Made by a program: the position numbers and the translations under genes
Shown here: positions 2,505-44,727 of the stretch, one piece after another
How the letters are laid out: every line of letters begins with the position of its first letter
Numbering within the stretch: the stretch's first letter is position 1
Notes under the pieces: model-generated
What the model was told of the DNA's origin: nothing
Seen by the model: only the letters and a program-made list of their open reading frames with translations
The model's database searches: none
DNA from: a virus
Virus record (IMG/VR): IMGVR_UViG_3300050821_002957
Coordinates: 271,192 to 335,191 of that record
Strand: one strand, 5' to 3'
DNA: 64,000 nucleotides

Positions 2505-2539
2505 AAACCATCTTACCAGATAGATGTATCTAATGTCAA
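2505..2539 (-). promoter_or_regulatory. sigma70-like promoter with the palindrome TAGATACATCTA in the spacer
   Basis: Minus sense reads TTGACA-ttagatacatctatctgg-TAAGAT-ggtttc-ATG. Confidence 0.45.
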
Positions 2540-2816
2540 CGAGTCACGGCAACTTTTTTTCAAGACGTTTCATCTCGATCAGTTGATGAAACAAGTCGGT
2601 ACAGGTTTTCAACTGATCGAAAAATCGAGGATCGGCTGGCTTTTCTTCGGGATGGAGTGAAACCATTGTCGAAAGCAGCCCATTACAGGCTTCAATTTTG
2701 CGTTCCAACAAAGTGATAGGACTGGGTTTCACAAATACCGGAGCCGGGGGAGGAACGCTCCGTGAAGGAACGTTCCCCAAAGTCGTCAAGAGAAGGATGG
2801 CGACTATCATATCGTT

Positions 2817-3620
2817 TTACAGGGCGAACAGCGTGCCGAGTTTCTGCGTCGATTCCAAGGCTACGTGCGGATGCTTCACGATCTCATCCCGAAAAACTTC
2901 CGTGAAGGCGTTATGCAGAGACCACATGCTGCGTCCCTTGAATTCGTCGTGGCGAGGCTCAAAGTATTCGTGAGCGACAGGCAGCACTTGATTCTGATTG
3001 ATAATGCCACTTTCCAGCGCATCAAAAATCGTCGCTTTCGCTTCGATATCGGTGATCTTTGTTTCCTTCAGCAAATTCACCCGATTGCCCAGGACATCGA
3101 ACTTGAGAATCGCCTTGTCCACGCCGCCGAAGATGGCAGTGCGAGGATTTAAACCAGCAGTATGCTTCCGCCACAGAATTTCCTCATCTCCAGACAAAGC
3201 CATGTTGTCGCAGCAGAAGACACGGAACCCGGCGACCAGACCAACCGCCATCGACTTGTCATTGGCCGCACGCAGACCCATTGCAAAGGCGAAATCGTCT
3301 ACTGCACGCTTCAATACCAGGGTGCCGAAGAGCTTCATTCCGTTGCTCATGACGGCCATTTCACAGCGGTCGATGGAAATTTTGTGGTCGGCCAAACGCT
3401 CTTCGATCAAGTTGATGAAATCGGCGTGAGCGACGGGACGATGGGTAAGGGTGCGTGGCGGGGTATTCAAATTCAGAAGTTCGCCACGAGAAATCCGTAC
3501 TGCGCCCCGGTGGGTACAGAGAGTTGCGCTAACGTTCTTGGCTTCCATTTTGGAACCATCCATTTCTGCCGAGTTCGTCTCGACAAAACAATCATACGCC
3601 AATCTGAATCGAGATGTCAA
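2817..3620 (-). CDS. hypothetical protein, possibly of the DUF932 phage/plasmid-related family
   Basis: 267-aa ORF next to ParB. The family assignment is only a recollection of overall resemblance and is not verified. Confidence 0.3.
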   Translation of the reverse strand: MTSRFRLAYDCFVETNSAEMDGSKMEAKNVSATLCTHRGAVRISRGELLNLNTPPRTLTHRPVAHADFINLIEERLADHKISIDRCEMAVMSNGMKLFGTLVLKRAVDDFAFAMGLRAANDKSMAVGLVAGFRVFCCDNMALSGDEEILWRKHTAGLNPRTAIFGGVDKAILKFDVLGNRVNLLKETKITDIEAKATIFDALESGIINQNQVLPVAHEYFEPRHDEFKGRSMWSLHNAFTEVFRDEIVKHPHVALESTQKLGTLFAL

Positions 3621-3672
3621 TAGCCTGATAAGATTTTTTAGACGCCTATTCAGGTCGGTCTACATAATTGGT

Positions 3673-4920
3673 ATGGCTGCACCTTCTTATACTGGCGATT
3701 TTTCCATCAAAAGCCTCATCCTTACGAACACGACCGGCGAAACGGTTGATTTGCGCTTTGTGATGCTGGAAATCAACGTTTATGAATCGCTTTGGAACAA
3801 CAACACCACTTGCGATATTCTGATCAATGACGCAAACAACCTGATCATGAATATTCCGATGTTTGGATATGAGACGTTGCTGTTAGAATTTCAGACGCCG
3901 AATGGAGAATTATGGTCGAAGACGTTCCGGCTCATGCGAATTACAGATAGAACGTTGACTAAGGAACGAGCCTTGGGATACATTCTCCATTTTGTAACGC
4001 TCGAAGCAATCACAAATTTGAAGACCAGAGTGAGCAAGTCGTACAAAGGCATGTTGATCTCTGATATGGTGGACGATCTCTTCAATAACTGGTTAGATTC
4101 AGACTCCGACATCAACATTGAGACTACAAAAAATCAATTCCATTTTATCATCCCAAACATTCCACCAATTCAGGCAATCAACTGGCTGTCTACGCACGCA
4201 AACTCGACGGGCTATAGTGGATCAAATTATCTTTTCTATGAGGACAAATACGGGTTCAACTTTGTCACGATGGAATCACGAATGGCACAGGATTCGAGTA
4301 AGACGTATTTGTTTCAAGTGGCAAACGTTCGTACCGATCCACCGGCTTTGCTTCCTGACTTCTCGACCAATGACGTGGCGGCACTTTCTTATACTCTCGA
4401 CAGTCAAAGTGACATCGTAGAGAACATGCGAGCAGGAATGTACGGTAACCAACTTCTTACGCACAGCCACTCTCGTAAAATTTGGCGCAGCTATACGTTC
4501 GATTATCCTTCTTCATTCGATAACTATACTCACTTGTACGACAGCAACATGCTAGAATCTCAGGCGACACAGGACACAAACAAACCGGCCAGTCGTCTAA
4601 AACTCTATCCAACTGGAGCCGATCAAGATGGTTATCCCTTTGTGCCTGAGCAGTGGCTTCCGATTCGTATTTCACAGTTACAGCAGTTGCACAACATCAG
4701 ATTCACAATTGCGATTCCTGGCGACTCTCAAAGGACTGTCGGTGAAGTAGTGACATTCAATCTTCCGTCGCCGCAGCAGCCAGTCAATAATCAACAGGTA
4801 AACGACAAATATTATGCTGGTGACTTTTTGGTCCAAAGTGTCCGACACATCATCGACATTGACAAGTATCGGACTGTCCTTGAACTAACCAAAGATTCTA
4901 CGTTGTCGCAATATCCTTAA
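3673..4920 (+). CDS. hypothetical large N/T/Q-rich protein, possibly structural
   Basis: Long clean ORF. The internal Met (MAAPSYTG) was chosen as start so the gene does not overlap the convergent minus-strand gene. Confidence 0.35.
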   Translation: MAAPSYTGDFSIKSLILTNTTGETVDLRFVMLEINVYESLWNNNTTCDILINDANNLIMNIPMFGYETLLLEFQTPNGELWSKTFRLMRITDRTLTKERALGYILHFVTLEAITNLKTRVSKSYKGMLISDMVDDLFNNWLDSDSDINIETTKNQFHFIIPNIPPIQAINWLSTHANSTGYSGSNYLFYEDKYGFNFVTMESRMAQDSSKTYLFQVANVRTDPPALLPDFSTNDVAALSYTLDSQSDIVENMRAGMYGNQLLTHSHSRKIWRSYTFDYPSSFDNYTHLYDSNMLESQATQDTNKPASRLKLYPTGADQDGYPFVPEQWLPIRISQLQQLHNIRFTIAIPGDSQRTVGEVVTFNLPSPQQPVNNQQVNDKYYAGDFLVQSVRHIIDIDKYRTVLELTKDSTLSQYP

Positions 4921-4956
4921 AGCCATAAATACTTTATTTTTCAATAGTTTATAAGT

Positions 4957-9215: not shown

Positions 9216-9691
9216 TGTTTGATACCCGAAAGAAAGGCTTCCTGTGTAACTTCAGATACCACTACTTGACCTTTGACAAATAACATGATTGTCGGGACGG
9301 CTCTGATAGAATACTTCATCGCAAGGTCTGCATTAGTATCTACGTCAACCCTAAGAAATGTTAACTCTGGGTCTTTAGAAAGCGCAGTGATGCCGGGAGC
9401 GTACAAACTAAAATTGAGAGCAATTGCACTGGAAGCTACATTGCTCTTTTGACTCCACAGGACAATGACACTCGTTTTATTTTGAAGGATCGCATCAAAG
9501 ACGGCGGCAATAGTGATATCTGTCATCATGTCCCTATTTAGCTTGACTTTACAGTCATCCTTAAGTATACTGTTTGCACTATGGCTACCAGTAAAGATAA
9601 CACTTTTGTCTGTAGTTTCTGCGATCCCCCAAGAAAATGTGTCAACGCTCAAGGTCTCGCAGCCCATCAACGGTCGGCACACCCAGATCAA
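9203..9691 (-). CDS. thioredoxin-fold protein lacking the CxxC active site
   Basis: The C-terminus is Trx-like (VPTIMLFVKGQVV...FLSGIKQWI). The position corresponding to WCGPC reads WSQKS. The real start is probably the internal MMTD near 9529. Confidence 0.4.
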   Translation of the reverse strand: MIWVCRPLMGCETLSVDTFSWGIAETTDKSVIFTGSHSANSILKDDCKVKLNRDMMTDITIAAVFDAILQNKTSVIVLWSQKSNVASSAIALNFSLYAPGITALSKDPELTFLRVDVDTNADLAMKYSIRAVPTIMLFVKGQVVVSEVTQEAFLSGIKQWIV

Positions 9692-9841
9692 GTCAAATCA
9701 AAATCAACACCTAAAAAGACGCATCACAAAACATATCACAAAAAATCATCAGAGATCTCATTGGCCGATGCGATCAATGCGTTGGAAATCAAACGAGACG
9801 CTTTGGATGAAGTCATTAAAAATTTGAAGGAGATGTTATGA
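9581..9841 (+). CDS. small basic protein with a C2H2-type zinc finger
   Basis: The finger FVCSFC...HQRSAH (C-x2-C...H-x3-H) is followed by a K/H-rich tail. Confidence 0.35.
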   Translation: MATSKDNTFVCSFCDPPRKCVNAQGLAAHQRSAHPDQVKSKSTPKKTHHKTYHKKSSEISLADAINALEIKRDALDEVIKNLKEML

Positions 9842-10140
9842 AACCATTGAGCAGGCGACAAGTCAGTACACTACGCCATTTAAAGATTCATGGAAGCGTC
9901 AGCATAGAGAGCTTGCGGTCCTTCCACCAGGGAACAATCTGGAGCCTTATGTACAAAGGACTCGTAGTCAAATTTGGAGGATCAGATGTAGGATTATCTA
10001 CGGCAGGCGAGGCAGTCCTTCGTGACTACAATTCGACGGCCCCGAGCTATCGCAAACATGATGCCGAATTGACCGACCGAGTTCAACGTCTTCTCGTGCG
10101 AGTGAAAATTCTTCAGATGCGAAAATCTGCGGCAGCTTGA
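9838..10140 (+). CDS. hypothetical protein
   Basis: 100-aa ORF whose start ATGA overlaps the upstream stop codon. Confidence 0.3.
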   Translation: MKPLSRRQVSTLRHLKIHGSVSIESLRSFHQGTIWSLMYKGLVVKFGGSDVGLSTAGEAVLRDYNSTAPSYRKHDAELTDRVQRLLVRVKILQMRKSAAA

Positions 10141-10168
10141 CATTTAGATGCATCTAGTGCTATGCTGG
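10139..10168 (+). promoter_or_regulatory. sigma70-like promoter with the perfect palindrome TAGATGCATCTA in the spacer
   Basis: It reads TTGACA-tttagatgcatctagtgc-TATGCT, immediately upstream of the ATG at 10173. Confidence 0.45.
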
Positions 10169-10471: not shown

Positions 10472-11722
10472 CTAGAGACGCCCGGAACGGATCAGTTCGA
10501 GGGCCTGTTCTTTCGATTTGATGTGACCGGCAAGCTGCCCATTCTCGGCGGCGTCCAGGATTCGTTTGAAATCTGGTCCTGGCTTCATTCCAAGTGCCTT
10601 CAGATCATCCCCATTGACAAATTTTGCCGGATTCAAGTCTTCGGCCTTCATGTTGGCAAACATTTTTGACAACATCTGGAAAGCAGCGATATGGACGTGC
10701 TTGTCCTGAGCCTCTGTACGGCATCCATAGAGCTTCAAGGCGTCGGGGAACAGCTTCTCACGCATCAGGCGTTTCAACACGTCCAGCGTCGTTCCAGCCG
10801 TCACAGAACCGATTCTGGACTGAAGGTCGATGATGCCGGTAATCTGCTTGATCGTGTCGTTAAAAAACTTCAGACGTTTACCAATTTTTTCTGCGCTCCC
10901 TGAAGGCAACATGTACAACGCACCAGCCAAACCCAATGCTGGATTGATGTTGGTGCCGATGAACGAAAGTGTTGCCATCATCTGAGCGTAATCATACGGA
11001 GTCATGTGGGCAACTTCCGGCAGAACATGCTCTAAGATGCCGGTGTTGTTCATTCCCTTGATTGTCTTGTGAGCGTCATGACCCATTGCCTTGGTCAATT
11101 CCTCTGTTATGCGCTCTACGTCCATTTTCGCAATGTTCGGAGCGTGCGCCTGCATTGCCGCCAGTGTCTCTGGGTGGATCTCAAATCCGAGCTTCGCCTG
11201 AAAACGATGTGCCCGAAGCATCCGAAGATGATCCTGTGTAAAACGGTCGTTCGGATTGCCGACACATTTGATGAGGCCGTTTTTTGCATCGGCCTTGCCA
11301 CCATGAAAATCGATGATGTCACCAGTGAACGGGTCCATGTACATTGCATTGACGGTGAAGTCACGCCGGTTGGAATCTTGTTGTTGATCACGAGTGTATT
11401 CGACATCATCTGGACGCCGACCATCAGTGTACTTTCCATCTTTGCGGAATGTGGCAATGTCGATACCGTGGCAGACAACGACACCAAATGATTTTCCTAC
11501 GACACTTGTTCCTGGGAAAAGTTTGAGAACTTCTTCAGGTGTGGCGTCAGTTGCTACGTCAAAATCTTTTGGCTTGTGGCCGGTCAAAAAATCACGAACA
11601 CAACCGCCAGCGAGATAGCCGACAAAGCCGTGTCTGCGAAGCGTAGTGATTACGTCTTTGGCGTCGTCAAGCGTGCCATAGGTGGACTCCCGAAGGAGGG
11701 CGAATTGTGTAAATGAGAGCAC
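10472..11722 (-). CDS. cca: tRNA nucleotidyltransferase (CCA-adding enzyme)
   Basis: The pol-beta head motif of the CCA/poly(A) polymerase family is present (GYLAGGCVRDFLTGHKPKDFDVATDATPEEV). Length is 416 aa. Confidence 0.8.
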   Translation of the reverse strand: MLSFTQFALLRESTYGTLDDAKDVITTLRRHGFVGYLAGGCVRDFLTGHKPKDFDVATDATPEEVLKLFPGTSVVGKSFGVVVCHGIDIATFRKDGKYTDGRRPDDVEYTRDQQQDSNRRDFTVNAMYMDPFTGDIIDFHGGKADAKNGLIKCVGNPNDRFTQDHLRMLRAHRFQAKLGFEIHPETLAAMQAHAPNIAKMDVERITEELTKAMGHDAHKTIKGMNNTGILEHVLPEVAHMTPYDYAQMMATLSFIGTNINPALGLAGALYMLPSGSAEKIGKRLKFFNDTIKQITGIIDLQSRIGSVTAGTTLDVLKRLMREKLFPDALKLYGCRTEAQDKHVHIAAFQMLSKMFANMKAEDLNPAKFVNGDDLKALGMKPGPDFKRILDAAENGQLAGHIKSKEQALELIRSGRL

Positions 11723-12219: not shown

Positions 12220-12261
12220 GAATAAAGAATAGCATGAAGATGTATCTAATGTCAAGGCCCC

Positions 12262-14102: not shown

Positions 14103-14190
14103 TTGGTGGGACGGGTGTGAGTCGAACACACAGGGTTCCAAGGAACATCCGCTTTACAGGCGGCTCTCGCTCCCTACGAGACTACCATCC
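14103..14190 (-). tRNA. tRNA-Tyr (anticodon GTA), type II with a long variable arm, CCA encoded
   Basis: Hand fold: acceptor GGGATGG/CCGTCCC, anticodon loop CTGTAAA, variable-arm stem GTTCC/GGAAC, T-arm GTGTG-TTCGACT-CACAC, discriminator A, CCA. Confidence 0.6.
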
Positions 14191-14712
14191 CAAGTTTGAA
14201 TGATAGGGCAGGAACGGTTATACTAAAGGCTTAACAGAGTGCTACTGAAGCACGCCGCCGTTCACGCCCAAAGTATAATAATAGAGAGTCATAAAATTTG
14301 ATCTGTGACTCGTCCGGGTAACAACTTCATTCCGGCACCCAGTCACTTCAATATGTATACTAGCACTATTCTTGAGTGCTGTCAAGCTGCTATAGTGCTG
14401 GCAATCTTCTCAAGCTCAACAATGTCTGCTTCGGTAAGAGAGAAACTAAGCACACTATCAAGTAACTGCCATTCTACATCATGCTCAAACAGTGTTGTAT
14501 CGATGCCCTTGAACTTCGCCAAATGACAAAGCAACTTTCGACTCATTCGCATCAATACGGCACCTTGAAGACCAAGTAACCATAGATCCAGACATGCAGG
14601 ATCATGATGTATTCCCAGACAGTCGCCCACGGTTCTGGTGTGAACGACTGCATCAACAGCGTGAACAAAAGAATTTTGAAGACAGAACTTCGTATCTTAT
14701 CGACCGGAGTGT

Positions 14713-15276
14713 TCATTCGCCGCCGTCTCCTCCATCTCCACCGTCTCCTCCGTCACCACCATCGCCATCTCCGCTGTTGTTTGATGACACAGCCGGTGCA
14801 GGATCTTCACGCTCGACCACAACAGTTGGCGTTGTTGCTACCTGAACAACATCTTCGACGATTTCTTCAAAAACCTGAGCAGCTACAAACGGGTCCACGT
14901 AATTGGTGGTGTCATCGGCGTTATAGACGGTTGTCGAATGAGTCCGAGGCACCAAATTGATTGAGCGAGGCGTGTTGCGAATTTGCCGGGGAATGTTGTT
15001 GCCAATCTGATTAGGCGTATTGTTGATCGGGCGAGGCGTTGTTCGCACACTCGGCCACGGAGTTGGGTTTACAGAATCACGAGGCCACGGTGTAGTTGGC
15101 TGTACTTCACGGTCACGATGAGGGAGCGTATCCTTCAACGATAAACTACCAGTCGGATATCGCTTCTCTTTCGGAGCGTCTTCGTACAACAAACTCTTGA
15201 TCGTTTTCCACAATGACATAAAGGGTCCTTCCTTTTCTGTTTTAATTAGGCAACCAAGTGCCCATCCAACTGCCAT
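14713..15276 (-). CDS. Pro/Thr-rich protein with a C-terminal (GDG)n repeat
   Basis: TPWP/NTP-type low-complexity sequence is followed by GDGDGGDGGDGGDGGDGGE. The DNA repeat lies at 14720-14770. Confidence 0.35.
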   Translation of the reverse strand: MAVGWALGCLIKTEKEGPFMSLWKTIKSLLYEDAPKEKRYPTGSLSLKDTLPHRDREVQPTTPWPRDSVNPTPWPSVRTTPRPINNTPNQIGNNIPRQIRNTPRSINLVPRTHSTTVYNADDTTNYVDPFVAAQVFEEIVEDVVQVATTPTVVVEREDPAPAVSSNNSGDGDGGDGGDGGDGGDGGE

Positions 15277-15865
15277 TCAACGACTGATCGATCTTCGGCA
15301 GCAGCTTGCTCAACTTGTGGCCTGGATACGCAGCCCGAAGATCGAGTTCCTGCGTCAATCCTTTCCAAACTTCCCATTCGGTGTATTGCATAGGATTATC
15401 TTACCACATCAATTTGTCTGGTCGTTTTCGTCGTACTCAGAGTTGACAATGCTCTGTGTTACGTTATCTGTCACTCGAATGACAATGCTTCTCCATCCTT
15501 GCCAATCGACCATGATTTGCAGAAGCTCAAGGCCGGTGAAGCCTGAGCGATTACACGCTATTTGAAAATCTTGAATGCGTTGTCGCTTCGTCTTGGTGGT
15601 TCGTCTTCCAGCAGGCATCGTAGTCTCCTATTTTCTGTGGCCGATATGATAGAACGAGCACCACCGGCACTTGTAAGCATCGAATGGGTCCTTCTGTTGG
15701 TCGGCGCATTTCTGTGCTGCTTCCATCGTAAGAAAGTCAATCTTGTTCATGCAACTTCGTACTTTGTCGTACATTGGACCAACCGGCGCAGGCTTCGGAG
15801 GCGTCTCACAAAAAGCAATGTACATGTCCTGAGTCGTAATTTTTGGTGGTTTGTTAGAAGGCATT

Positions 15866-16261
15866 TCAGTTCTCGATACGCTCTTCCCAGATTTTCAGCA
15901 CTTTCATGAACTGTTCATCGAGTTCCGGCGACTCTCCAATGGTAATTTTCCGACCCATGAGCTTACTGACTTCGGCGATACTCTGGTCCATTTTTTTGGT
16001 CGCACGCACAATGTCGAGTTCATGTAGATGATCGAAGTTCTTGGCAGTCTTCCAGATTTCTGCTTCAGCCTTCACGTCTACAATACTACGGTTGATCCAA
16101 TCGAAGATGGCCTTGTACTGACGTTTGTTGCTTCGGCGTTGAACTAGCGCCAACAACTTTTCACGATTGGTCTGAAGTTTACACAAAAGGGAGTGGAGTT
16201 CGATACGTCGAGCAGCCTTGTAAATTTGAAATTGCAACCATGTGCTCATTTCACGTCCCAT
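15866..16261 (-). CDS. hypothetical protein
   Basis: 131-aa ORF in a minus-strand operon. Confidence 0.35.
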   Translation of the reverse strand: MGREMSTWLQFQIYKAARRIELHSLLCKLQTNREKLLALVQRRSNKRQYKAIFDWINRSIVDVKAEAEIWKTAKNFDHLHELDIVRATKKMDQSIAEVSKLMGRKITIGESPELDEQFMKVLKIWEERIEN

Positions 16262-16896
16262 CCTTTCAGGAACAAAGACAAGACTACACGTTCGAGATTT
16301 CGTAAGGCTTCGTTGGAATCGGTAGCAGGCGCAGGATCGAGTTCAATTTTGTCACTGACCACCTGGGGCACATTTGTCGTCGGAACAAATGTTTTGCAAC
16401 GATTAATTGGTTGATGCCAGACGTAGGTCTTTCCCGCAATCTCGACGACGAAACGGTAGCACAGGGTATCTGTCTCAAAGACAAGATTGGAGACGAACCC
16501 ATTATCGTACAGATACCAAATGAAATTGGTTTTTAGGTCGTAGGCTTTATTGTTCGTTGCCGCCGTGAATTTTTTCGCCTTGATGTGCTTGTTCAGATCG
16601 TAGCACGCCTCACACCCGGCAGCGACGACATCTTCAAAAAGCATCCCACCGAGCGCCTCAAGTTCTCGTTCCGCCACCTTACGAAGCTCGACAACAAACT
16701 CAGGAGATTGCTTTGCAGTAGCGATAGCACTCTGCGGAAAGAATACTATGCCCGAGGCATCATTACGTTTGACCGGCGCACCCAACAGAGCGATCATGCC
16801 TTTGGTCCAGTTTTTACCCCGAAACGTATTGATATCGAGTGGATCATTAGTGCCGAAGTGATTGACAGACACCAGATAATTCGGAAACCCTTTCAT
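16246..16896 (-). CDS. hypothetical protein
   Basis: 216-aa ORF. Confidence 0.35.
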   Translation of the reverse strand: MKGFPNYLVSVNHFGTNDPLDINTFRGKNWTKGMIALLGAPVKRNDASGIVFFPQSAIATAKQSPEFVVELRKVAERELEALGGMLFEDVVAAGCEACYDLNKHIKAKKFTAATNNKAYDLKTNFIWYLYDNGFVSNLVFETDTLCYRFVVEIAGKTYVWHQPINRCKTFVPTTNVPQVVSDKIELDPAPATDSNEALRNLERVVLSLFLKGWDVK

Positions 16897-17150
16897 GCCT
16901 TTTTCTCCTCTAAGAATACAGTGTAACCGTATCGGTACATACCAAACAATTGCCCATCTTCATCCGTACCAGTAGAGATCATGTGAAATGCTCTGTCACC
17001 CATCACAATGATCATCGGGATATGGTCTAGCTCGACGGTACGAACTTCGTCATGCAGCCCATCACGAAGATACAGGCGCATCTGTTTTGGTTTCATGCTT
17101 TCACTCCGAAAATCTTTTTCAAAATCCAGACAGGCGGATGATCCAACCAT
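16893..17150 (-). CDS. hypothetical protein
   Basis: 85-aa ORF overlapping the next gene's stop by 4 nt. Confidence 0.3.
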   Translation of the reverse strand: MVGSSACLDFEKDFRSESMKPKQMRLYLRDGLHDEVRTVELDHIPMIIVMGDRAFHMISTGTDEDGQLFGMYRYGYTVFLEEKKA

Positions 17151-17422
17151 GCAAGATCATTGGCAAATGGACATTCATCCTGGCGCAAAGAGGACTCATA
17201 ATACTTGGCAGCGGCAACCGAAATGCTTGTTGATTCCACCCAACCATCACACTTTGAATACGTCATGTGAATGTATTCTAGAGCTTCTTCAGCGGTGCGG
17301 CCTCTGGTGAGCACCGTGCCAATACGGGAATGTGAGAAGCTCCACAGCAAATACTTCTCACCATTCGGAACGTACCGGAATTCAAGTTCTCGGCACTCTT
17401 CTGTTGTAAGCCACTTCATCAT
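17093..17422 (-). CDS. hypothetical protein
   Basis: 109-aa ORF. Confidence 0.3.
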   Translation of the reverse strand: MMKWLTTEECRELEFRYVPNGEKYLLWSFSHSRIGTVLTRGRTAEEALEYIHMTYSKCDGWVESTSISVAAAKYYESSLRQDECPFANDLAWLDHPPVWILKKIFGVKA

Positions 17423-18519
17423 TATTTCACCCCTGCAAATTGTTCGATCATTGCTTGCTGGGAAGGCTGACCGGCCAGCGGATTCGCCGACGAAGGCTTC
17501 ACACCCTTTACCAGCCGCACATTGTGGAACGTCGTCGGATACTGATTGAAGCCTTTTCCGTGGACACTGTAGTTGCAGATCACTTTGTTGCGAACAGTGA
17601 AGCTCGATCCATCGGCGAAGTGAAACACAATCTCGCCCTGAAAGCCTGCGCCATTCACATGACCCTCGATGATTTCGGGAATGACACCGGAACCGAAACC
17701 GCTCATGATCATCTGATTGTCTTTCGCTTCAAGAACGACGGCCAGCTTGGTGACGTTTTTGTAGAGGAACATACGCTGGGCATAATCGGCGTCCTTCTGA
17801 GCGATCTTGCGGAGCAGATCCTTGAAATTTGGAACGAGGCGAGTATAGTTGCCGGTGTGCGAATCCCATCCTTCGCCTACAGTCTGTAACAAGAAATCGG
17901 CAGAGGTCGGCGTATATCGTTCGTTGCGTGTGCGAGGATGGTCCATGCGATATTGAACCGAAGAGACGAAATTGTTGAACAGGATGTCTTCGTACTGGAG
18001 GGTCAGACCGTCTGTCATGTCCTTCAGAACTTTCGTGACGAGGATTGCCGCTTCGGTGGTCGGCATCGGCGGAACGTAATCGTCGGCCTTCTCTTCTTCG
18101 CTGCGCCCGACACGCTTCACAATTTTGTCCTTCAGGAGCATCAGCGCATCATACAGGTCAACGATCTCAGCGCAGACGGCGAACCATTGAGCATTGTCAA
18201 ACTTCTTCTTTTTGGCGAGCTTCACTTTTCCGGCGACTTGATTGCCGTACATGAAAGTCAGATCGAAGGTATAGTTCTCGACCTTGGGAAAATGATAGGC
18301 AGCGCTAAAGGCTTCGCTGTACAGTCCACGATGGCTGTCCTCTGCGATACTGACGACGGTATTGAGTGCTTCTTTGGCGCTCTTGAATTCAGGATTGGGG
18401 ATCGAATCGGTGTAGGTGTTCAGAGCATTGACGACCGTCTGGAGGGCTTTCTTGCCCCAAGACGATTGATTCGCTTGGCAGGCGGCGTTCAACAGCGGGT
18501 ATTGATCTACGCTCTTCAT
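17422..18519 (-). CDS. hypothetical protein
   Basis: 365-aa ORF. A promoter TTGACA-N17-TATTCT preceded by AGATGCATCT lies at 18526-18575. Confidence 0.4.
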   Translation of the reverse strand: MKSVDQYPLLNAACQANQSSWGKKALQTVVNALNTYTDSIPNPEFKSAKEALNTVVSIAEDSHRGLYSEAFSAAYHFPKVENYTFDLTFMYGNQVAGKVKLAKKKKFDNAQWFAVCAEIVDLYDALMLLKDKIVKRVGRSEEEKADDYVPPMPTTEAAILVTKVLKDMTDGLTLQYEDILFNNFVSSVQYRMDHPRTRNERYTPTSADFLLQTVGEGWDSHTGNYTRLVPNFKDLLRKIAQKDADYAQRMFLYKNVTKLAVVLEAKDNQMIMSGFGSGVIPEIIEGHVNGAGFQGEIVFHFADGSSFTVRNKVICNYSVHGKGFNQYPTTFHNVRLVKGVKPSSANPLAGQPSQQAMIEQFAGVK

Positions 18520-18593
18520 GAAACTAGAATAGCAAACCTACCCTACCATGTCAACAGTAGATGCATCTTTTTCTGGAAGGAATATTTTATCTA

Positions 18594-18624
18594 CCTCTTG
18601 ACATATTGACGGCTGGTGCGCTAT
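18594..18624 (+). promoter_or_regulatory. sigma70-like promoter
   Basis: It reads TTGACA-tattgacggctggtgcgc-TATGCTGG. The -10 context TATGCTGG is the same as in the promoter at 10139. Confidence 0.4.
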
Positions 18625-18685
18625 GCTGGTACTGTCAAAGAGAGTCCCATTTTCAACGACTTACGTCCGTTGATAAATACTCTCC

Positions 18686-19090
18686 ATGAAAACCTTCCTC
18701 GAATTTATCTTGACCGAGAATGCCATGTTACCGGGCGTTGCTGGCGTAATGAAACACCAACGGGACAATGGTTTAGCCAAGGTAGGTGTTCATCCCAATT
18801 TTGCTGCCATTAAGAAGCAGCGTGAAGATAGCATCAACAAAGTTGGCACCCATCCAAATTTTGCTGAAATCTTACGTCGGCGTCAAGCAGGTCAAATGTC
18901 GGAAGAAGAAATGAACGAACTGCTTGGTCTATTCAAAAAGAAAAACGATGCAAAACCCTCGCCGTTTGCCAAACCAAAAAACGCAATTGGACATGGTGAC
19001 AAGGCTTATCGCACGAACCACCATTATGGGAACGGTGACATCGAACCATCCACCGTTCCTATTTTCAAACCAACTTGGCAGAATCGTTAG
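18686..19090 (+). CDS. hypothetical protein with an internal duplicated motif
   Basis: The segments VGVHPNFAAIKKQREDS and VGTHPNFAEILRRRQ are repeated. Confidence 0.35.
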   Translation: MKTFLEFILTENAMLPGVAGVMKHQRDNGLAKVGVHPNFAAIKKQREDSINKVGTHPNFAEILRRRQAGQMSEEEMNELLGLFKKKNDAKPSPFAKPKNAIGHGDKAYRTNHHYGNGDIEPSTVPIFKPTWQNR

Positions 19091-19629
19091 AAACGTCTCG
19101 GACACGCTGGCGGCTTCGCACAATCACCGGGTCCACCATTGTCCTTGGTCACTTTTTTGTTGGGAACTTTCTTCGGCTTTTTGACCGGCGACAATTGATG
19201 TGCATCGAAGTATTGAACGTCAGTCAAAATGCCTTCATGCAGTTTTGATGATTGCAGACCGACTCGCTGTGACGACGTAAAAAATTTGGACAATGAAATC
19301 GCAACACCTTCAAAATCTGAAATGCTGTCTTTGTACGTGTCGCCGAGTACGATCATATCCGGCTCTTCTTCATATGAAATCACTGCGGCCCCAGGTTGTT
19401 CTTGGAGAAGCTGTTCGTCAATGTAGAATCCGTCCATCGGCCCACCGTCAGCCTTGAGACCCGGAGGCTGAATTGCCACTCGGACGCACGCATACAGGAA
19501 AGTTGTGCGAGAGACAGCGACACCTTTAAGTCCTGAAATGGGATCTTTGTATGTTCTGCCGAGCGTTGCTACTTCTGTCGCTGCGGTCTTCAAAACGTTT
19601 TCACGATCAATTGGTTTGGAGTTTGCCAT
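19087..19629 (-). CDS. hypothetical protein with a duplicated module
   Basis: The segments YKDPISGLKGVAVSRTTF and YKDSISDFEGVAISLSKF are repeated, and the C-terminal tail is basic. Confidence 0.35.
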   Translation of the reverse strand: MANSKPIDRENVLKTAATEVATLGRTYKDPISGLKGVAVSRTTFLYACVRVAIQPPGLKADGGPMDGFYIDEQLLQEQPGAAVISYEEEPDMIVLGDTYKDSISDFEGVAISLSKFFTSSQRVGLQSSKLHEGILTDVQYFDAHQLSPVKKPKKVPNKKVTKDNGGPGDCAKPPACPRRF

Positions 19630-19674
19630 GTGTCGAGAGTAACATGATGGCTATAGGTGTGTCAATAATTTTAA

Positions 19675-19762
19675 TGGCTGGAGGAGCAGGACTCGAACCT
19701 GCATATGAGCTTTCGCTACGACACATTAACAGTGTGCTGCCTTACCGTTAGGCGACCCTCCA
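19675..19762 (-). tRNA. tRNA with a GTT (Asn) anticodon loop but a long, type-II-like variable arm; CCA encoded
   Basis: Hand fold: acceptor TGGAGGG/TCCTCCA, D-arm GCCT-AACGGTA-AGGC, anticodon loop CTGTTAA, an 18-nt variable region with an AGC-GAAA-GCT hairpin, T-arm GCAGG-TTCGAGT-CCTGC, then G and CCA. Confidence 0.45.
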
Positions 19763-19783
19763 ATATAAATGGATGTATGGCAA

Positions 19784-20217
19784 ATTCACAGAAAGTAAAA
19801 GAATGGCGCAAAAGAACCAAACAACGAATGATTGATGCAATGGGTGGATCGTGTGTAGTCTGTGGCTACACTCGTTGTTCAGCCTCATTAGGATTTCATC
19901 ATCTCGATCCGAGCAAGAAACATTTTGGTTTCGGAGGTCTTCGTGCCAACCCAAAATCTTGGGAGAAGATCAGCGAAGAACTACGAAAATGCGTTCTGAT
20001 TTGCAATCGTTGTCACGGAGAAGTACATGATGGTATAACCATCATTCCCATTAATGCAAAACGGTACGACGAAAGTTATGCTCAGAAATTTGGAAGAAGA
20101 AAAATGGCTCCGGGGACAGGACTCGAACCTGTAACATCCGCTTTAACAGAGCGGCGCTCTACCATTGAGCTACCCCGGAATGAGGTTGCTTCTTTGGTTA
20201 GGGTCACGCCGTTTTAA
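19784..20217 (+). CDS. HNH homing endonuclease
   Basis: Motifs CVVCGY...HHLDP...CNRCHGEVHDG are present. The gene lies between two tRNA genes and its 3' end overlaps the antisense tRNA at 20105-20179. Confidence 0.65.
20105..20179 (-). tRNA. tRNA-Asn (anticodon GTT), CCA encoded
   Basis: Hand fold: acceptor TCCGGGG/CCCCGGA, D-arm GCTC-AATGGTA-GAGC, anticodon arm CCGCT-CTGTTAA-AGCGG, T-arm ACAGG-TTCGAGT-CCTGT, discriminator G, CCA. Confidence 0.65.
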
Positions 20218-20260
20218 AGCGTGACCTACGTATTGTAGGTTGTGTAAGTCATCACAATTC

Positions 20261-20268
20261 TATTTATA
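20261..20268 (-). promoter_or_regulatory. TATAAATA late-promoter-like motif within a conserved 28-mer
   Basis: The 28-mer GTCATCACAATTCTATTTATACCACGGT recurs at 22351-22378. Both copies lie upstream of minus-strand tRNA genes. Confidence 0.35.
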
Positions 20269-20520
20269 CCACGGTGTTTTGAAACTGTCAACCTTTTATT
20301 TTACATTGACTCCGATCATTCGTCATACCGATCCATGAATTCTCTAACGTCATCAATACGAATTACAAACAAAATGATGAACAGAGGACCGCCGATGCAA
20401 AATAACACTCTGGCAGTTTGCTCCATGTCCATTATCATCTCAAAGAACCCCGCAAGAAAAAGCAAAATGAATGCCAGCCGCCAGCAATTCTTCCAGTTGA
20501 TCTTCACATAATCGAACATG

Positions 20521-21456: not shown

Positions 21457-21463
21457 ATTTCAC

Positions 21464-21999: not shown

Positions 22000-22101
22000 T
22001 GCCGGTAAACTTTGTGTTTGGATCGAAACTGAAATTTGGATCTAATTTGTAAATCATAGCAAGAAGTATATAGCACTTCTAAGCCAATGAAATTAAGGTT
22101 T

Positions 22102-24691: not shown

Positions 24692-24693
24692 GT

Positions 24694-26984: not shown

Positions 26985-27059
26985 ATCATTATCTCCTATG
27001 ATACCTAATTTTTTCGACTTCACCAGAATAACACATGCCTGATTGTTGTCAAGCATGTA

Positions 27060-27398: not shown

Positions 27399-27429
27399 AC
27401 ACCCACCATAACATGTAGATGTGTCTTTG

Positions 27430-27681
27430 TCAAACTACCAATTCAAATTGTTCGAGGTCCCCGGTCACATAGCTGCCCGTTTCAAGTTGAGCCGTCCAGT
27501 GATCAGGATGAAGTACGTATGATTCGGAAGTTGGATTCCAAATTTTATACCGCTCAGTTACCACGCCTGCGATTATATAGGCACACTGAAAATTACAGCC
27601 AGGACAACGTTCGGTTTTGGTTCCATCCCAGCCGCCATGATAGAGGATCTTGACGCCGGGTTTCATTTGGTCGAGGATCAT
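27430..27681 (-). CDS. hypothetical protein
   Basis: 83-aa ORF. Confidence 0.3.
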   Translation of the reverse strand: MILDQMKPGVKILYHGGWDGTKTERCPGCNFQCAYIIAGVVTERYKIWNPTSESYVLHPDHWTAQLETGSYVTGDLEQFELVV

Positions 27682-39012: not shown

Positions 39013-39255
39013 TCATCCAATGTGAGCCGATACCACATTTCCGTTGACAACTTTAAAATTTATCCGAAAAGCGTTGTGGTCATTGTTGAGTGGTTGAAGC
39101 CCTGAATGTTCAACTTTTACGATGAAACCTGCCTGCTGTGCTTTGCTTTGTGCTTCGTCGATTCTCATCCCGACATATTGTGAAACGTCCATAATTTTAT
39201 ACCTATTGTGACTGACAGGCTTTCCGCCCCGAATTTTTGGTGTTAGGAAATCCAT
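39013..39255 (-). CDS. small protein with a PASTA/BamE-like segment
   Basis: It contains YVGMRIDEAQSKAQQAGFIVKV. Confidence 0.25.
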   Translation of the reverse strand: MDFLTPKIRGGKPVSHNRYKIMDVSQYVGMRIDEAQSKAQQAGFIVKVEHSGLQPLNNDHNAFRINFKVVNGNVVSAHIG

Positions 39256-39557
39256 TATTCCTCGTCGTTAATATCTAGCCAATCGGGAGCTTCCCAGGTT
39301 CGGTGAATAACTCTGACGTAGATTACACCTTCTTCTTCGTCAAGATTCCATTCAAGATCATCGCCAACTTCTATGTTCAATTCACGAACTAATCCATCTG
39401 GCAGTGTCATCATTCCGTTCGGTTGTATGACACAGGCATATGACCTATTACCAAATCCAGAGTTCACCCAGACACCTAAAATGGGTGGTTCATCATTATC
39501 TTCAGTCGGCTCTTCGTCAAAGTCTTCCGGTTCTAGCTCTGCGTAATCTTCAGCCAT
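39255..39557 (-). CDS. AbrB/SpoVT (MazE-like) swapped-hairpin domain protein with an acidic N-terminus
   Basis: It contains MMTLPDGLVRELNIEVGDDLEW. Confidence 0.35.
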   Translation of the reverse strand: MAEDYAELEPEDFDEEPTEDNDEPPILGVWVNSGFGNRSYACVIQPNGMMTLPDGLVRELNIEVGDDLEWNLDEEEGVIYVRVIHRTWEAPDWLDINDEE

Positions 39558-40681
39558 TTTCTTCCTACCCGAATCACTGACATTTCTGGCAACGGTTCTT
39601 TGAGTCTTGGATCGATAACTACACTACCATTTACATTTACGGCTCCGCTCTTCACCAGACGACTGCCCTCTGAGACCGAAGATGCCAAACCCATCAGCAC
39701 CAAGACTCGATCCAGGCGTGTATTGACCGAATGAAAAACCGGAATTCTTACAACTGGAATATCGACCGGCGCTTCACGATCTGAAAATCTCTTTGTCCAT
39801 TCAATTTCAGCGGTGTCTGCTTTTGGTTCGTCATGTAACCAATGAACAATTCGCCATGCCAAATATTTCTTAGATTGAAATGGTTGAGGATGCCAGCCAC
39901 ATTTATTTGGAAACAGAACCTCTTGCCATTGGCGCATTACATCATCAGCAATCGACATAACTTTGCTGAACATTTCAAATGGTTCATCCAGCAAACCAAT
40001 GTGATTACCGAACGACTTGGACATCTTTCGACCGTCCGTACCAAACAACAAAGGAACCGTCGCAATAACCTGAGGTTTCTCACCACGATCATGCATGTAC
40101 ATCCGGCCCATCAGCATGTTGTAAAATTGATCGTTGCCGCCAAGTTCAATATCTACACCTTCTCTGAAAGAGTCATATGCCTGAAGCATGGGGTATAACA
40201 TCTCATGCATAAAGACCGGAGTGTTTGTTACCTTGCGTTCTTTAAAATCGTCACGGCCACCGATTTGACTGAGGGTGAAATGGGACATGAGACGAATTAC
40301 ATCTTGCATCTTCATCTCGTCAAACCATTCGGCATTCTTTTTGACGACGGTTTTGGTTCGATCCAAAATTTTGAAAGCCTGTGTCATATAGCTCCAGGCG
40401 TTCGTATTGATTTCATCGTCAGAAAGCGCAGGCCGAAGCTGATTGCGCCCGGTCGGATCACCAATCGATGCTGTGGTGTTGCCGACGATCATCACAATGG
40501 TGTGCCCAGCATCCTGAAATTCACGCATCTTTTTCAACAGCACAGCATGACCAAGATGTAGGTCTGGTGCTGTGGGATCGAATCCGGCTTTCACACGTAA
40601 CGGATGACCTGACGCAATAAGAGCATCAAACTCCTTTTCGTCGAGGAGTTGCGTAAACCCGGATTTGAGTGATTGTTGCAC
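39533..40681 (-). CDS. tyrS: tyrosyl-tRNA synthetase
   Basis: It has the class I HIGH motif in a TyrRS context (GFDPTAPDLHLGH), the KMSKS motif and a C-terminal S4-like domain (LVKSGAVNVNG). Confidence 0.85.
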   Translation of the reverse strand: MQQSLKSGFTQLLDEKEFDALIASGHPLRVKAGFDPTAPDLHLGHAVLLKKMREFQDAGHTIVMIVGNTTASIGDPTGRNQLRPALSDDEINTNAWSYMTQAFKILDRTKTVVKKNAEWFDEMKMQDVIRLMSHFTLSQIGGRDDFKERKVTNTPVFMHEMLYPMLQAYDSFREGVDIELGGNDQFYNMLMGRMYMHDRGEKPQVIATVPLLFGTDGRKMSKSFGNHIGLLDEPFEMFSKVMSIADDVMRQWQEVLFPNKCGWHPQPFQSKKYLAWRIVHWLHDEPKADTAEIEWTKRFSDREAPVDIPVVRIPVFHSVNTRLDRVLVLMGLASSVSEGSRLVKSGAVNVNGSVVIDPRLKEPLPEMSVIRVGRKWLKITQS

Positions 40682-42892: not shown

Positions 42893-43201
42893 GATTTTTA
42901 CGCTATCACAGTAGATACATCGTTGTCAATTCTGGGTAGATGTCATGGAGATTCGCTGTGGCTTGAATCGCCAACAATGACGCCATGCAAAATGAGCCAT
43001 ACCAGCATGACCACACCGAGCACATTTCGTTCTCCAATGCTTTCCTGAGACCCCACGAATAACCCACCAGAGATCGTGATACCAGCGATGTACCGAAACT
43101 TTATGTGGTTCGCTCATTGTAATCCTAAAGCCTTTCTCATTGCGAATTGTGTTTGCAAGACGCCAGCCTCTTCGCCAACCTCTAATGCATTGGTGAGTAA
43201 A

Positions 43202-43630
43202 TCAATGAGCGTATTTCTGTTGATACATCCACTCAACCAAATCTTGTCGTTGAGTGATTTCTGGATACATCCACTCAACCAAAGCAAGAGCCGATGCTAC
43301 AGTTCTAAGCTCGACATCAGTCATCAACAGGCGATACCCATTCAACCGTTTCCCACTTTCAAGATCCATCACCAGATATTGCATTTTGGATGCTAACGAT
43401 ATACCCGGCTCTTCCCGGTCCAGATTTTCTATCCACGGTTTATCGTCTTTAGTCGTGTTGAAAATGATGTCACCTGCCAACCGAAGAATATCAGCCATCT
43501 GGTTTTTCACATGTGCCGAAACTGCATGTAACATCCTAATTTTCCTCGTTATTAAAAATTTGAATTGCCGTAGCGTACTTACGGAACGACAATGAACCAC
43601 AAGACGAAAATCGCATCGAGACGGTAGCAA
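43202..43630 (-). CDS. hypothetical protein with a C-terminal direct repeat
   Basis: The 3' end contains a 19-bp direct repeat (atacatccactcaaccaaa) that encodes LVEWMY twice. Confidence 0.3.
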   Translation of the reverse strand: MLPSRCDFRLVVHCRSVSTLRQFKFLITRKIRMLHAVSAHVKNQMADILRLAGDIIFNTTKDDKPWIENLDREEPGISLASKMQYLVMDLESGKRLNGYRLLMTDVELRTVASALALVEWMYPEITQRQDLVEWMYQQKYAH

Positions 43631-43919
43631 TCTGTTCAGGACCCTCTTCGAGGAAATTATCCAGATCGGACATTGACGTAAAATCGATCATGAAAGTCAT
43701 CCCTTGATCCATTTCTTCAGCAACGAATCCGGCAGCGGTTTTTCACCACGAAGCTGCTGTAAATACTGGACGAACACTCCGTCAACCGCCTTGGCATTAT
43801 TCACATCAGGAATCTTCAATTCCTTTTTTGCATGAAGGCGAGAAAATGATAAATCCCCTGAAGTTGACCAAACTCACCGTTCGTCATTTCAATGGTCTTC
43901 AAAGTCTTGGTCCGTGGCA

Positions 43920-44186
43920 TCACGCCTCTGCTTTCAGGGCCTTCTCTAAGCGTTCAATCACCGCTTCCTCTTTAGAGGCATGTTTTCCGATGAGCGCACC
44001 ATGTTTGATGCCGAGCAGACAGGTTTCGACGATGCTGACATGCCGACGCTTGGCCGATTGGGAAGACGATTTCTTGCTGAGAACTTCGACGGCATTCGCA
44101 GCATGAATATCAGCAAGATAAACGGCGAGATTTTTCCAATTGTCCAATTCGATCTTCAGATCTAGAATCTCGTTCTCAGTCATCAT
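43920..44186 (-). CDS. hypothetical protein
   Basis: 88-aa ORF. Confidence 0.3.
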   Translation of the reverse strand: MMTENEILDLKIELDNWKNLAVYLADIHAANAVEVLSKKSSSQSAKRRHVSIVETCLLGIKHGALIGKHASKEEAVIERLEKALKAEA

Positions 44187-44188
44187 GA

Positions 44189-44488
44189 TTATGCTCCGAT
44201 CTCGATGGTGGGCATTTCCATTCCGGCAGCAAAGCCATGCCGAGTATAAAATGACTTGATAGGGATCATTGCCGTTTTAAAGGACTTTTCAGTACCGTCA
44301 CCGTTCTGAATGAAATGCATCAGCTTTTTCGCAGATCGAATGGGAGCATTCCAATACGCCCAACCATCACTGCAAAGATTGACTTGATCACGAAAATCGG
44401 AGAGGAATTTAGCCGCTTGATAAGTGGGTGTGTCTGGACGATATTTACGAACAGCACTATCGATTTCGTTTTCATTCATGTAGTTCAT
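44189..44488 (-). CDS. hypothetical protein
   Basis: 99-aa ORF. The promoter AGATACATCT-TTGACA-N17-TAGAAT lies 15 nt upstream of its ATG. Confidence 0.35.
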   Translation of the reverse strand: MNYMNENEIDSAVRKYRPDTPTYQAAKFLSDFRDQVNLCSDGWAYWNAPIRSAKKLMHFIQNGDGTEKSFKTAMIPIKSFYTRHGFAAGMEMPTIEIGA

Positions 44489-44727
44489 AAGAAGATTCTA
44501 TCAAATGGATGGTGTCATGTCAAGAGAAGATGTATCTTTTTTTAGAAACGCCAAAAATGAACTGGAATTGGCGTTTCGGCAATGAAAGTTTCGACTGCAT
44601 TTTTAACAGCAAGAAGTGTTTCTTGGTCATGTGGCTCTGGAGAAAGCCAGTATTCACGAATGATTTCACGTATCAGGTTTCATAGTACCATATTACCAGA
44701 ACCTAAATTCATTGTCAATAGATGTAA

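Follow-up and report, generated by a model that had tools for sequence, protein, structure and literature searches.

A recurrent palindrome in consensus σ70-type promoters of an uncultured T4-like jumbo phage, with a ParB/KorB-like protein as its candidate binder

Introduction

The KorB protein of the IncP-1 plasmid RK2 has a ParB fold with a helix-turn-helix (HTH) domain, acts on one palindromic operator, OB, that is repeated over a mobile genome, and controls its own operon too. Members of the ParB/KorB family bind as dimers to 16-bp palindromes, and KorB exerts a 4- to 5-fold repression from proximal operators located 4–10 bp upstream of the −35 hexamer (PMC11790492). The KorB-OB regulon is the closest analogue of the element described here, a palindrome with the core AGATRYATCT that recurs at promoters in a stretch of 64,000 nucleotides from an uncultured T4-like jumbo phage (IMG/VR virus record IMGVR_UViG_3300050821_002957, positions 271,192 to 335,191), hereafter called the window. 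As in the KorB-OB regulon, promoter-proximal sites are found just upstream of the −35 hexamers of promoters of the host σ70 type, at a distance that in the present case is 0–7 bp. Unlike the KorB-OB regulon, the palindrome belongs to a T4-like jumbo phage of lytic type and not to a plasmid, its sequence is unrelated to OB, and half of its sites lie in the promoter spacer, a position not described for OB. Moreover, distal sites were not encountered, the window yielded no KorA or IncC partner, and the ParB/KorB-like protein encoded there is only about 18–27% identical in sequence to KorB and has GHTR instead of GERR in its box II.

The ParB-parS and Noc-NBS systems (NBS, Noc-binding site) resemble the present one in fold and HTH domain, their dimers recognize 16-bp palindromes, and the Noc sites are many and scattered over the genome, about 70 of them being present in the Bacillus subtilis chromosome. 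In contrast to the palindrome, parS and NBS sites are not placed relative to promoter hexamers, and the primary roles of these systems are segregation and nucleoid occlusion. The operators of lambdoid repressors and Cro (OR1–3, with the leaderless promoter PRM) are also dyads that overlap or abut −35 and −10 hexamers, their regulator controls its own gene, and one site is centred near −42 beside a leaderless promoter, a resemblance that is geometric only. They differ in that they are 17 bp long, clustered at one or two control regions and devoted to the lysis-lysogeny decision, whereas here single sites of 12–16 bp are distributed among dozens of promoters in a genome of T4 type; the window showed neither an integrase nor lysogeny genes. 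Finally, the AsiA/MotA switch of T4 shares with the present system the T4 lineage, the host σ70 RNA polymerase, and a specific group of promoters that is marked by a short element near −30. Unlike the palindrome, which stands beside a perfect TTGACA, the MotA box (TGCTTtA, centred at −30) lacks symmetry and takes the place of the −35 hexamer. Pfam scans covered about 120 open reading frames (ORFs) of the window, two of the three bulk scans giving the top 25 families, so that weak matches may hide; with this scope, no MotA or AsiA family was among the results. Readings of the palindrome as a MotA box or as a late promoter were rejected.

Transcription control in T4-type phages is known almost entirely from T4 itself, where it involves ADP-ribosylation, AsiA/MotA and gp55/gp33, and to our knowledge an operator/repressor circuit on early promoters is no part of this picture. 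Proteins with the ParB-type cytidine triphosphatase (CTPase) fold are common in phages, according to a recent survey (PMC12704722). We found no report in the literature of a ParB-fold protein that controls early promoters of a T4-type or jumbo phage, nor one of leaderless early promoters in this lineage.

Results and Discussion

Palindromic sites are concentrated at promoters of the window and of related phages

The exact palindrome AGATRYATCT is present five times in the window (at 2522, 10146, 12238, 18559 and 44528), where 0.24 copies would be expected, and no shuffled sequence reached five copies. Exact copies of the 12-mer TAGATRYATCTA are limited to two, at 2521 and 10145. Upon allowing at most one mismatch in the 10-mer, 12 copies were found against 6.9 expected, and nine of these 12 are located in promoters. 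The promoter copies with one mismatch are those at 42913 (AGATACATCG), 44720 (AGATGTAACT), 1972 (AGGTGCATCT) and 27417 (AGATGTGTCT), while the copies at 8598, 38135 and 48182 lie within genes, are without a promoter and have the look of background at chance level. All nine promoter copies are situated 0–4 bp from a perfect TTGACA, which is followed after 17–18 bp by TAnnnT; hexamers and spacing are of the σ70 type, and several of the promoters have a TG extension. Six sites make up a spacer class (−35 at 1991, 2539, 12255, 27433 and 42929 on the minus strand, and at 10137 on the plus strand) and three an upstream class (−35 at 18554, 44523 and 44718, all on the minus strand), so that eight of the nine promoters are on the minus strand and one is on the plus strand. 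An earlier note on this DNA, made from its letters and ORFs, had announced eight copies of AGATRYATCT beside TTGACA and listed seven. The copies are indeed real and enriched and the coordinates correct, but only five copies are exact, and the one-mismatch promoter copies at 1972 and 27417 had been missed. For the sites that it listed, the note was right in placing four in the spacer and the rest 5′ of the −35, in its −10 hexamers 17–18 nucleotides (nt) further on, which we find as TAnnnT at all nine promoters, and in the targets that it named (the HD hydrolase, the 365-amino-acid protein, and the small ORFs at 10.2 and 12.2 kb). It lacked the minus-strand bias (8/9), the leaderless layout in which an ATG follows the −10 after 6 nt, and the ParB/KorB-like gene.

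To this window we added at least seven other phages of the same clade, represented by 11 stretches from 10 contigs. One relative, on an IMG/VR contig (L003/L146), was recovered from pattern matches by BLAST against the window; the others (L239/L242, L240, L241, L243, L285, L287, L288, L289 and the short fragment L281) were reached via homologues of UvsW or of the ParB-like protein. Scans of IMG/VR with the pattern of palindrome plus TTGACA gave more than 200 single chance matches, among which only L003/L146 was a relative, and a related-locus search with single proteins (the 365-amino-acid protein and UvsW) found nothing. The pooled census comprises the window and 11 related stretches, 12 in all with 242 kb; L281 was read separately. 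These 12 stretches contain 106 promoters of the form TTGAC(A/C/T)-N16–19-TAnnnT, and 47 of them carry a site with at most two mismatches from TAGATRYATCTA (23 in the spacer, 22 upstream, and 2 with both). The earlier note had made its claim depend on the frequency of the motif inside and outside promoters. By the same two-mismatch threshold, 49 of the 80 sites in the census fall into promoter zones, which account for approximately 2% of the sequence, and in the window alone 9 of 14 sites do so.

The positions of the sites are narrowly defined. Relative to the predicted transcription start (+1), the centres of the spacer sites range from −21.5 to −24.5 with a mode at −23.5, and those of the upstream sites from −41.5 to −45.5 with a mode at −42.5 and a tail to −48.5. 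Among the 24 upstream sites, 11 are centred at −42.5 and 19 between −41.5 and −43.5. The 12-mer accordingly spans about −29 to −18 in the spacer class and about −48 to −37 in the upstream class, the latter being 0–7 bp from the −35. A position-frequency matrix built from 30 sites has the consensus kTAGATrCATCTAy, with a core of 12 bp that is extended to 16–18 bp in some copies; perfect palindromes of 16–18 bp occur among the copies, such as AAGTAGATACATCTACTT in L003.

The same arrangement was present in all relatives that were fetched, and at orthologous promoters a site of the same class persists, while the intergenic flanks drift. Individual phages have variants of their own: TAGGTACATCTA is found four times in L240, and L288 has five copies of the TAGACGTATCTA type. 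In 185,579 bacterial and archaeal genomes, the pattern TAGATRCATCTA-N0–1-TTGACA gave 31 scattered single matches, which by our own estimate is about the chance level; these 31 matches show no relationship to the window and no enrichment in any taxon. On this chance-level result, which is weak evidence, a promoter/operator combination of the host was rejected. The earlier note had left it undecided whether the factor is encoded by phage or host. Together, the phage-specific variants (L240 and L288) and the chance-level genome scan speak for a binder that is encoded by the phages and co-evolves with its sites, rather than for a conserved host factor, and we consider it probable that the binder is phage-encoded.

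We have high confidence that the observation is real and functionally meaningful. The element has the traits of an operator, namely dyad symmetry, many copies, a fixed position at the core promoter, and conservation in relatives. To judge from these sequence traits, which argue for a site that is tied to a sequence-specific dimeric DNA-binding protein, the palindrome is very probably a protein operator. This fits the suggestion of the earlier note that an operator co-regulates a set of promoters, since the dyad is tied to promoters and its position is kept in diverged phages; the function is a predicted one.

Other roles for the palindrome were tried and rejected. A role at the RNA level was discarded because the sites lie upstream of the predicted start sites of their own promoters, and because a loopless perfect palindrome of 10–12 nt gives no useful hairpin; Rfam finds only tRNAs. 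A target of homing endonucleases or restriction enzymes was considered in view of the many HNH, GIY-YIG and EndoVII genes in the window and of the GC variant of the palindrome, which contains ATGCAT, and was ruled out by the fixed position relative to the −35 and the varying central dinucleotide.

Individual sites in the window

The candidate operators are listed below with their promoters, preceded by the gene of the candidate binder and followed by one weaker site. Centres are relative to the predicted +1, and amino acids are abbreviated as aa.

1008–1913, minus strand: gene of a ParB/Noc/KorB-fold protein of 301 aa, candidate operator-binding repressor.
1971–1982, minus strand: candidate spacer operator, variant TAGATGCACCTA, centre about −21.5; promoter of the ParB/KorB-like gene (−35 at 1986–1991, −10 at 1962–1967, minus strand), with a leader and thus not leaderless.
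2521–2532, minus strand: candidate spacer operator TAGATACATCTA, centre −23.5; promoter with −35 at 2534–2539 and −10 at 2510–2515 (minus strand), predicted leaderless ATG at 2503, 165-aa ORF at 2006–2503.
10145–10156, plus strand: candidate spacer operator TAGATGCATCTA, centre −22.5; promoter with −35 at 10137–10142 and −10 at 10161–10166 (plus strand), predicted leaderless ATG at 10173, 62-aa ORF.
12237–12248, minus strand: candidate spacer operator TAGATACATCTt, centre −23.5; promoter with −35 at 12250–12255 and −10 at 12226–12231 (minus strand), predicted leaderless ATG at 12219, 105-aa ORF.
18558–18569, minus strand: candidate upstream operator aAGATGCATCTA, centre −44.5, 4 bp 5′ of the −35 and preceded by an A-tract; promoter with −35 at 18549–18554 and −10 at 18526–18531 (minus strand), predicted leaderless ATG at 18519, 365-aa ORF.
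27416–27427, minus strand: candidate spacer operator aAGACACATCTA, one mismatch in the 10-mer, centre −23.5; promoter with −35 at 27428–27433 and −10 at 27405–27410 (minus strand), GTG at 27398, 112-aa ORF.
42912–42923, minus strand: candidate spacer operator aCGATGTATCTA, one mismatch in the 10-mer, centre −24.5; promoter with −35 at 42924–42929 and −10 at 42900–42905 (minus strand), ATG at 42892, HD_4 hydrolase of 193 aa.
44527–44538, minus strand: candidate upstream operator aAGATACATCTt, centre −44.5, 4 bp 5′ of the −35 and preceded by an A-tract; promoter with −35 at 44518–44523 and −10 at 44495–44500 (minus strand), predicted leaderless ATG at 44488, 99-aa ORF.
44719–44730, minus strand: candidate upstream operator TAGTTACATCTA, one mismatch in the 10-mer, centre −41.5, abutting the −35; promoter with −35 at 44713–44718 and −10 at 44690–44695 (minus strand), ATG at 44683, ORF of only five codons.
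50648–50657, minus strand: possible weak site or half-site TCTACATCTA, not one of the nine, at the start of the spacer of a TTGACA-N17-TACTGT promoter (−35 at 50658–50663).

Several of these promoters could be matched to counterparts in relatives. In L242, the promoter at 9668, which has the same position just upstream of the ParB-like gene as the promoter at 2539 of the window, has kept the spacer site, and the orthologue (2653) of the promoter at 10137 has retained its site while the flanks have diverged. The promoters that correspond to 44718 in L239, L240 and L241 carry sites of the upstream class too, and in L146 a full upstream-class site is present at a promoter in the region of the weak site at 50648. 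An additional half-site, ACATCTA, is located approximately 13 bp upstream of the −35 at the promoter of the HD_4 hydrolase (42929). The genes for the CCA-adding enzyme and for Ro60 (TROVE) lie downstream of the promoters at 12255 and 27433, respectively, and in both cases on the same strand. Behind the five-codon ORF at 44683 (MKPDT*), about 190 nt with a GAAACGCCAA...TTGGCGTTTC hairpin precede the promoter at 44523 (window 44489–44683, minus strand); this region could be a decayed gene, the relatives having ORFs of 83–107 aa here, or a small RNA.

Promoter layout

The arrangement TTGACA-N16–19-TAnnnT-N6-ATG was encountered eight times in the window, against 0.02 expected. When the distances of ATG codons from the −10 were plotted as a histogram, a single spike was seen at 6 (8/22 promoters for the window, 22/66 for the relatives). 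This layout is also present at promoters without the palindrome, such as the one with its −35 at 19665 (ATG 19629). Since transcription would start approximately 7 nt after the −10, the mRNA would begin at the A of the AUG, and the mRNAs of these promoters are thus probably leaderless. A leaderless gene has no untranslated region downstream of the −10, which may be why the operator is found in the spacer or against the −35. The strictness of the layout also gives a clue to the host, whose ribosomes must translate leaderless mRNAs efficiently.

The ParB-like gene is an exception to this rule, in that it has a conserved leader of about 50 nt (window 1914–1961, minus strand; L243 1600–1647; also L281, L287 and L289). 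In most relatives this leader opens with a GTAGC-N5–9-GCTAC hairpin located at the predicted +1, and a conserved AAAGGACACC Shine-Dalgarno region closes it in every one, the window included. The leader may be a second, post-transcriptional control point.

A ParB/KorB-like protein as candidate binder

The DNA-related regulators among the Pfam matches listed for the window are a gp55-like sigma factor, an AbrB/MazE-like protein and the ParB-HTH/KorB-like protein, and the last of these is the only plausible sequence-specific DNA binder among them. It matches the Pfam family HTH_ParB with 26.6 bits (cut-off 22.6, E=6.9e-6), while its matches to KorB (18.6 bits, cut-off 22.3, E=1.9e-3) and ParB_N (E=0.16) remain under the cut-off. 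Sequence matches in the PDB are to Noc and Spo0J, at about 3e-6. An AlphaFold2 model of the protein (mean predicted local distance difference test score, pLDDT, 84.5) was matched by Foldseek to Spo0J, ParB, Noc and RK2 KorB at about 1e-8, the alignments with these proteins covering approximately 175–234 columns and including the N-terminal domain; the operator-bound DNA-binding domain of KorB (1r71) was aligned as well. Box II of the protein reads TGHTRILAA and not GERRxRA, so that only the last arginine is kept. Across 16 homologues G71, T73 and R74 do not vary, and H72 is retained in at least 90%. The ParA-binding motif [LFI]G[KR]G[LFI], as defined elsewhere (PMC12704722), is absent from the protein, and no family of the ParA/CbiA type was among the Pfam results for the window, within the top-25 scope of the bulk scans.

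The connection between this protein and the palindrome comes from its own promoter. In all eight T4-like phages in which this promoter could be read (the window, L242, L243, L281, L285, L287, L288 and L289, with proteins that are 45–75% identical, the match in L281 being partial), palindrome sequence is present in the promoter region of the gene, and in six of them as a clear spacer site. The promoter in the window has the structure TTGACA-aag-TAGATGCACCTA-gtt-TAGAGT, and the imperfect TAGATGCACCTA occupies the same place in the window, L287 and L289. In L243 and L281 the spacer contains AGATGCATCT, and in L242 two tandem copies extend across the promoter. L285 has only split half-sites that flank the −35, and L288 presents an ambiguous case with GTAGACACGTTCTAC, a longer-centred palindrome by a weak TTGAAA and without a clear −10. 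The occurrence of the palindrome at the gene's own promoter in 8/8 phages is a sign of autoregulation, and by this sequence pattern the ParB-like gene appears to be autoregulated through the palindrome.

Outside this group, searches returned little. Among 50,697 phage records, tblastn with the ParB-like protein as query did not find a homologue, and scans of metagenomes and viral sequences with the ParB alignment found one close orthologue (L281) and an unrelated 94-kb phage type that lacks the motif. Distant homologues of about 41% identity in unrelated phage types (L244/L276 and L286) are likewise without the motif. The recognition helix has the pattern S-x-x-S-N-x-R-K in the motif-positive phages versus SWVAKHKK and GWVSAHRI in the distant homologues. 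As a separate observation, two adjacent DNA methyltransferase genes in L244 (5000–6124), an unrelated 94-kb phage with a distant KorB-like protein, contain seven inverted repeats of 13–20 nt that are perfect or nearly so.

Proposed mechanism and alternative explanations

We propose that the host σ70-RNA polymerase would fire the consensus early promoters (TTGACA-N17/18-TAnnnT), with transcription mostly starting at the A of the ATG. One of the early transcripts would encode the ParB-like protein, which would accumulate and bind the operators as a dimer. A dimer bound in the spacer would clash with σ70 and block the formation of open complexes, and a dimer that abuts the −35 would compete with σ region 4 and with the C-terminal domain of the RNA polymerase α subunit (α-CTD), as KorB does when bound to its proximal operators (PMC11790492). 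Approximately 40% of the early promoters would be turned down in this manner, that of the ParB-like gene itself included, which would amount to negative feedback or shut-off. The genes directly behind the sites are the ParB-like gene, the ORFs of 165, 62, 105, 112, 365 and 99 aa, and the HD_4 hydrolase gene. Repression is likelier than activation because a consensus −35 is present at every target promoter: with a consensus or near-consensus −35, a good −10 and a frequent TG extension, these promoters should be strong unaided. Both position classes touch the −35, as expected for steric repression. That the binder is the ParB/KorB-like protein and that it acts as a repressor is to us an even call, and binding, identity and repression are all predicted.

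A number of points weigh against this assignment. No orthologue of the ParB-like protein was found in a word-limited search on the L240 (399,930 bp) and L241 (145,869 bp) contigs, both of which are motif-positive; given its size, the L241 contig probably represents an incomplete genome. The gene of the true binder may lie beyond the 64-kb window. The correlation between recognition helix and motif involves few phages, which are phylogenetically nested. With GHTR in place of GERR in box II, a KorB-like clamp behaviour with CTP-dependent sliding is doubtful. In geometry, the upstream sites at −42.5 resemble those of class II or lambda cI-type activators, by analogy with which activation from there is possible, and the designation of the promoters as early is itself drawn by analogy from T4-type phages.

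The alternative that survives best is that the palindrome serves as the operator of another phage regulator, encoded outside the window or as a small unannotated protein such as a C2H2 protein, and that the ParB-like gene is just one of the targets. This would agree with the outcome of the search on the L240 and L241 contigs, and there is room for such a regulator, 64 kb of approximately 404 kb having been seen and most small ORFs being without a Pfam match. The C2H2 protein at 9581, one of two binders put forward in the earlier note, is basic (isoelectric point, pI, 9.3) and could dimerise through its C-terminal coiled coil. However, a homologue was found only in L242, the closest relative, a response-regulator gene takes its place in L285, which is syntenic and carries the motif, and its own promoter (−35 at 9543) has no site; it was rejected on this distribution. 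The other protein put forward, the AbrB-like protein at 39255, has a pI of 4.05 and a net charge of −25 and was rejected on its charge. No other DNA-binding domain was detected among the Pfam matches listed for the window. We regard a different phage regulator as possible and yet rather unlikely.

Both rejected proteins have features of their own. The C2H2 protein (9581–9841, plus strand; 86 aa) has a single finger, CSFC...HQRSAH, and a basic linker rich in lysine and histidine in front of the coiled coil, an architecture that is unusual for a prokaryotic virus. In L285, a 375-kb relative, a stand-alone response-regulator receiver protein (2111–2575) is located where the window has the cassette of the C2H2 and 62-aa ORFs. 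The AbrB/MazE-like protein (39255–39557, minus strand; PF04014 domain, E=1.6e-5) is encoded directly downstream of the gene for tyrosyl-tRNA synthetase (TyrRS), has acidic N- and C-terminal tails and a homologue in L240, and is suggestive of a DNA mimic or an antitoxin-like protein binder rather than of a regulator.

A further possibility is that one protein acts in a dual mode, repressing at the spacer sites and activating from near −42.5, as lambda cI does at OR2/PRM, which would sort the early genes into two temporal sub-classes. The placement of the upstream sites matches the class II activation geometry of CRP and lambda cI, 11 of the 24 sites being centred at −42.5, about 19–20 bp or two helical turns from the spacer class. 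Yet an activator would be needless at the promoters of the upstream class, whose −35 is consensus or nearly so and is accompanied by a good −10 and often by a TG extension, and KorB represses from an equivalent position. The offsets range from −41.5 to −48.5, a spread that class II activation tolerates poorly. The promoter scans required a TTGAC(A/C/T) −35, but nearly all exact copies found without this filter also abut TTGACA or a near match. We consider the dual mode to be quite unlikely. Speculatively, a ParB-fold protein could serve as a genome-wide temporal switch that, via dozens of operators within leaderless σ70 promoters, represses from the spacer and activates or clamp-loads from −42.5, which we hold to be unlikely; just as unlikely, on the same reading, a plasmid-type KorB circuit would have replaced the logic of ADP-ribosylation and AsiA/MotA in these phages of the T4 lineage, and the ParB fold would have gained a novel function as a regulator that resides at the core promoter.

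If instead the palindrome were recognized by a host transcription factor, or were a promoter element associated with RNA polymerase that the phages exploit, this could account for the same core in phages whose UvsW proteins are only 57–85% identical, and for the upstream class, which occupies the proximal UP-element region and follows an A-tract. Such an origin is very doubtful, because the relatives have variants of their own, the combination of palindrome and TTGACA is at chance in the 185,579 genomes, a dyad with two positions is unlike a recognition element of the polymerase, and more than half of the otherwise identical consensus promoters are without the palindrome. Least of all do we believe in parS- or NBS-like loading or centromere-like sites at which a ParB-type clamp would mark, condense or tether the genome, the promoter placement being incidental: the best PDB sequence matches are Noc and Spo0J and dozens of sites per genome are reminiscent of Noc, but at 47 promoters the distance to the −35 is fixed to within 1–2 bp, which is not incidental, a ParA gene did not turn up among the Pfam results for the window, and box II is a degenerate GHTR.

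With the ParB/KorB-like protein as repressor, the system would not be categorically new biology; it would be a conserved regulatory circuit in an unexplored clade of huge phages. In this clade of uncultured T4-like phages of 350–405 kb, one dyad operator of the predicted kind is placed at about 40% of the consensus host-type promoters. If the proposed mechanism is true, global operator control in the style of KorB extends from plasmids to lytic jumbo phages, ParB-fold proteins work from inside the promoter spacer, and the phages offer a compact and portable set of strong, repressible, leaderless σ70 promoters. Because the promoters are of σ70 consensus, the circuit is directly testable in E. 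coli.

Other features of the window

The window is part of the genome of a T4-like jumbo phage of approximately 404 kb, of which it covers 16%. Its UvsW helicase (48393–50069) is 100% identical to a protein on a contig of 404,282 bp, and relatives of this helicase with 53–84% identity are encoded on contigs of 343–400 kb. A megablast search with the first 20 kb of the window against cultured phages gave no match; the nearest cultured ones are cyanophages and the Methylophilales phage Melnitz, with about 40% identity in gp46 and UvsW. The T4 core functions encoded in the window include gp46/SbcC-like and gp47-type phosphoesterase proteins, UvsY, UvsW, a gp55-like protein with sigma region 2 (sigma r2), and sheath and tail pieces. 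Accessory genes specify TyrRS, a CCA-adding enzyme, Ro60/TROVE, ClpP, a ClpB-like AAA protein, macro and ADP-ribosylglycohydrolase domains, UDP-glucose dehydrogenase, many homing-type nucleases and 7–8 tRNAs.

The tRNA genes form a cluster at 14104–25105 (Tyr, two Asn, Trp, two Ala, Ile, and one recognized by Rfam only at 22195–22267). Together with TyrRS (39533–40681), the CCA-adding enzyme (10472–11722) and a Ro60/TROVE-vWA protein (25191–27056), they make up a toolkit for RNA maintenance; Rfam found no Y-RNA-like partner for Ro60 in the window. The homing-type nucleases are of the HNH, Endonuclease VII-like (three) and GIY-YIG types, and genes of this kind at 45246–45725, 52988–53602, 53599–54261 and 56439–56876 stand among the T4 core genes for replication and recombination. 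In some relatives, intein/Hint domains are present in the homologues of UvsW and gp55 (P0021, P0025 and P0043; in L239, a sigma r2 protein of 644 aa).

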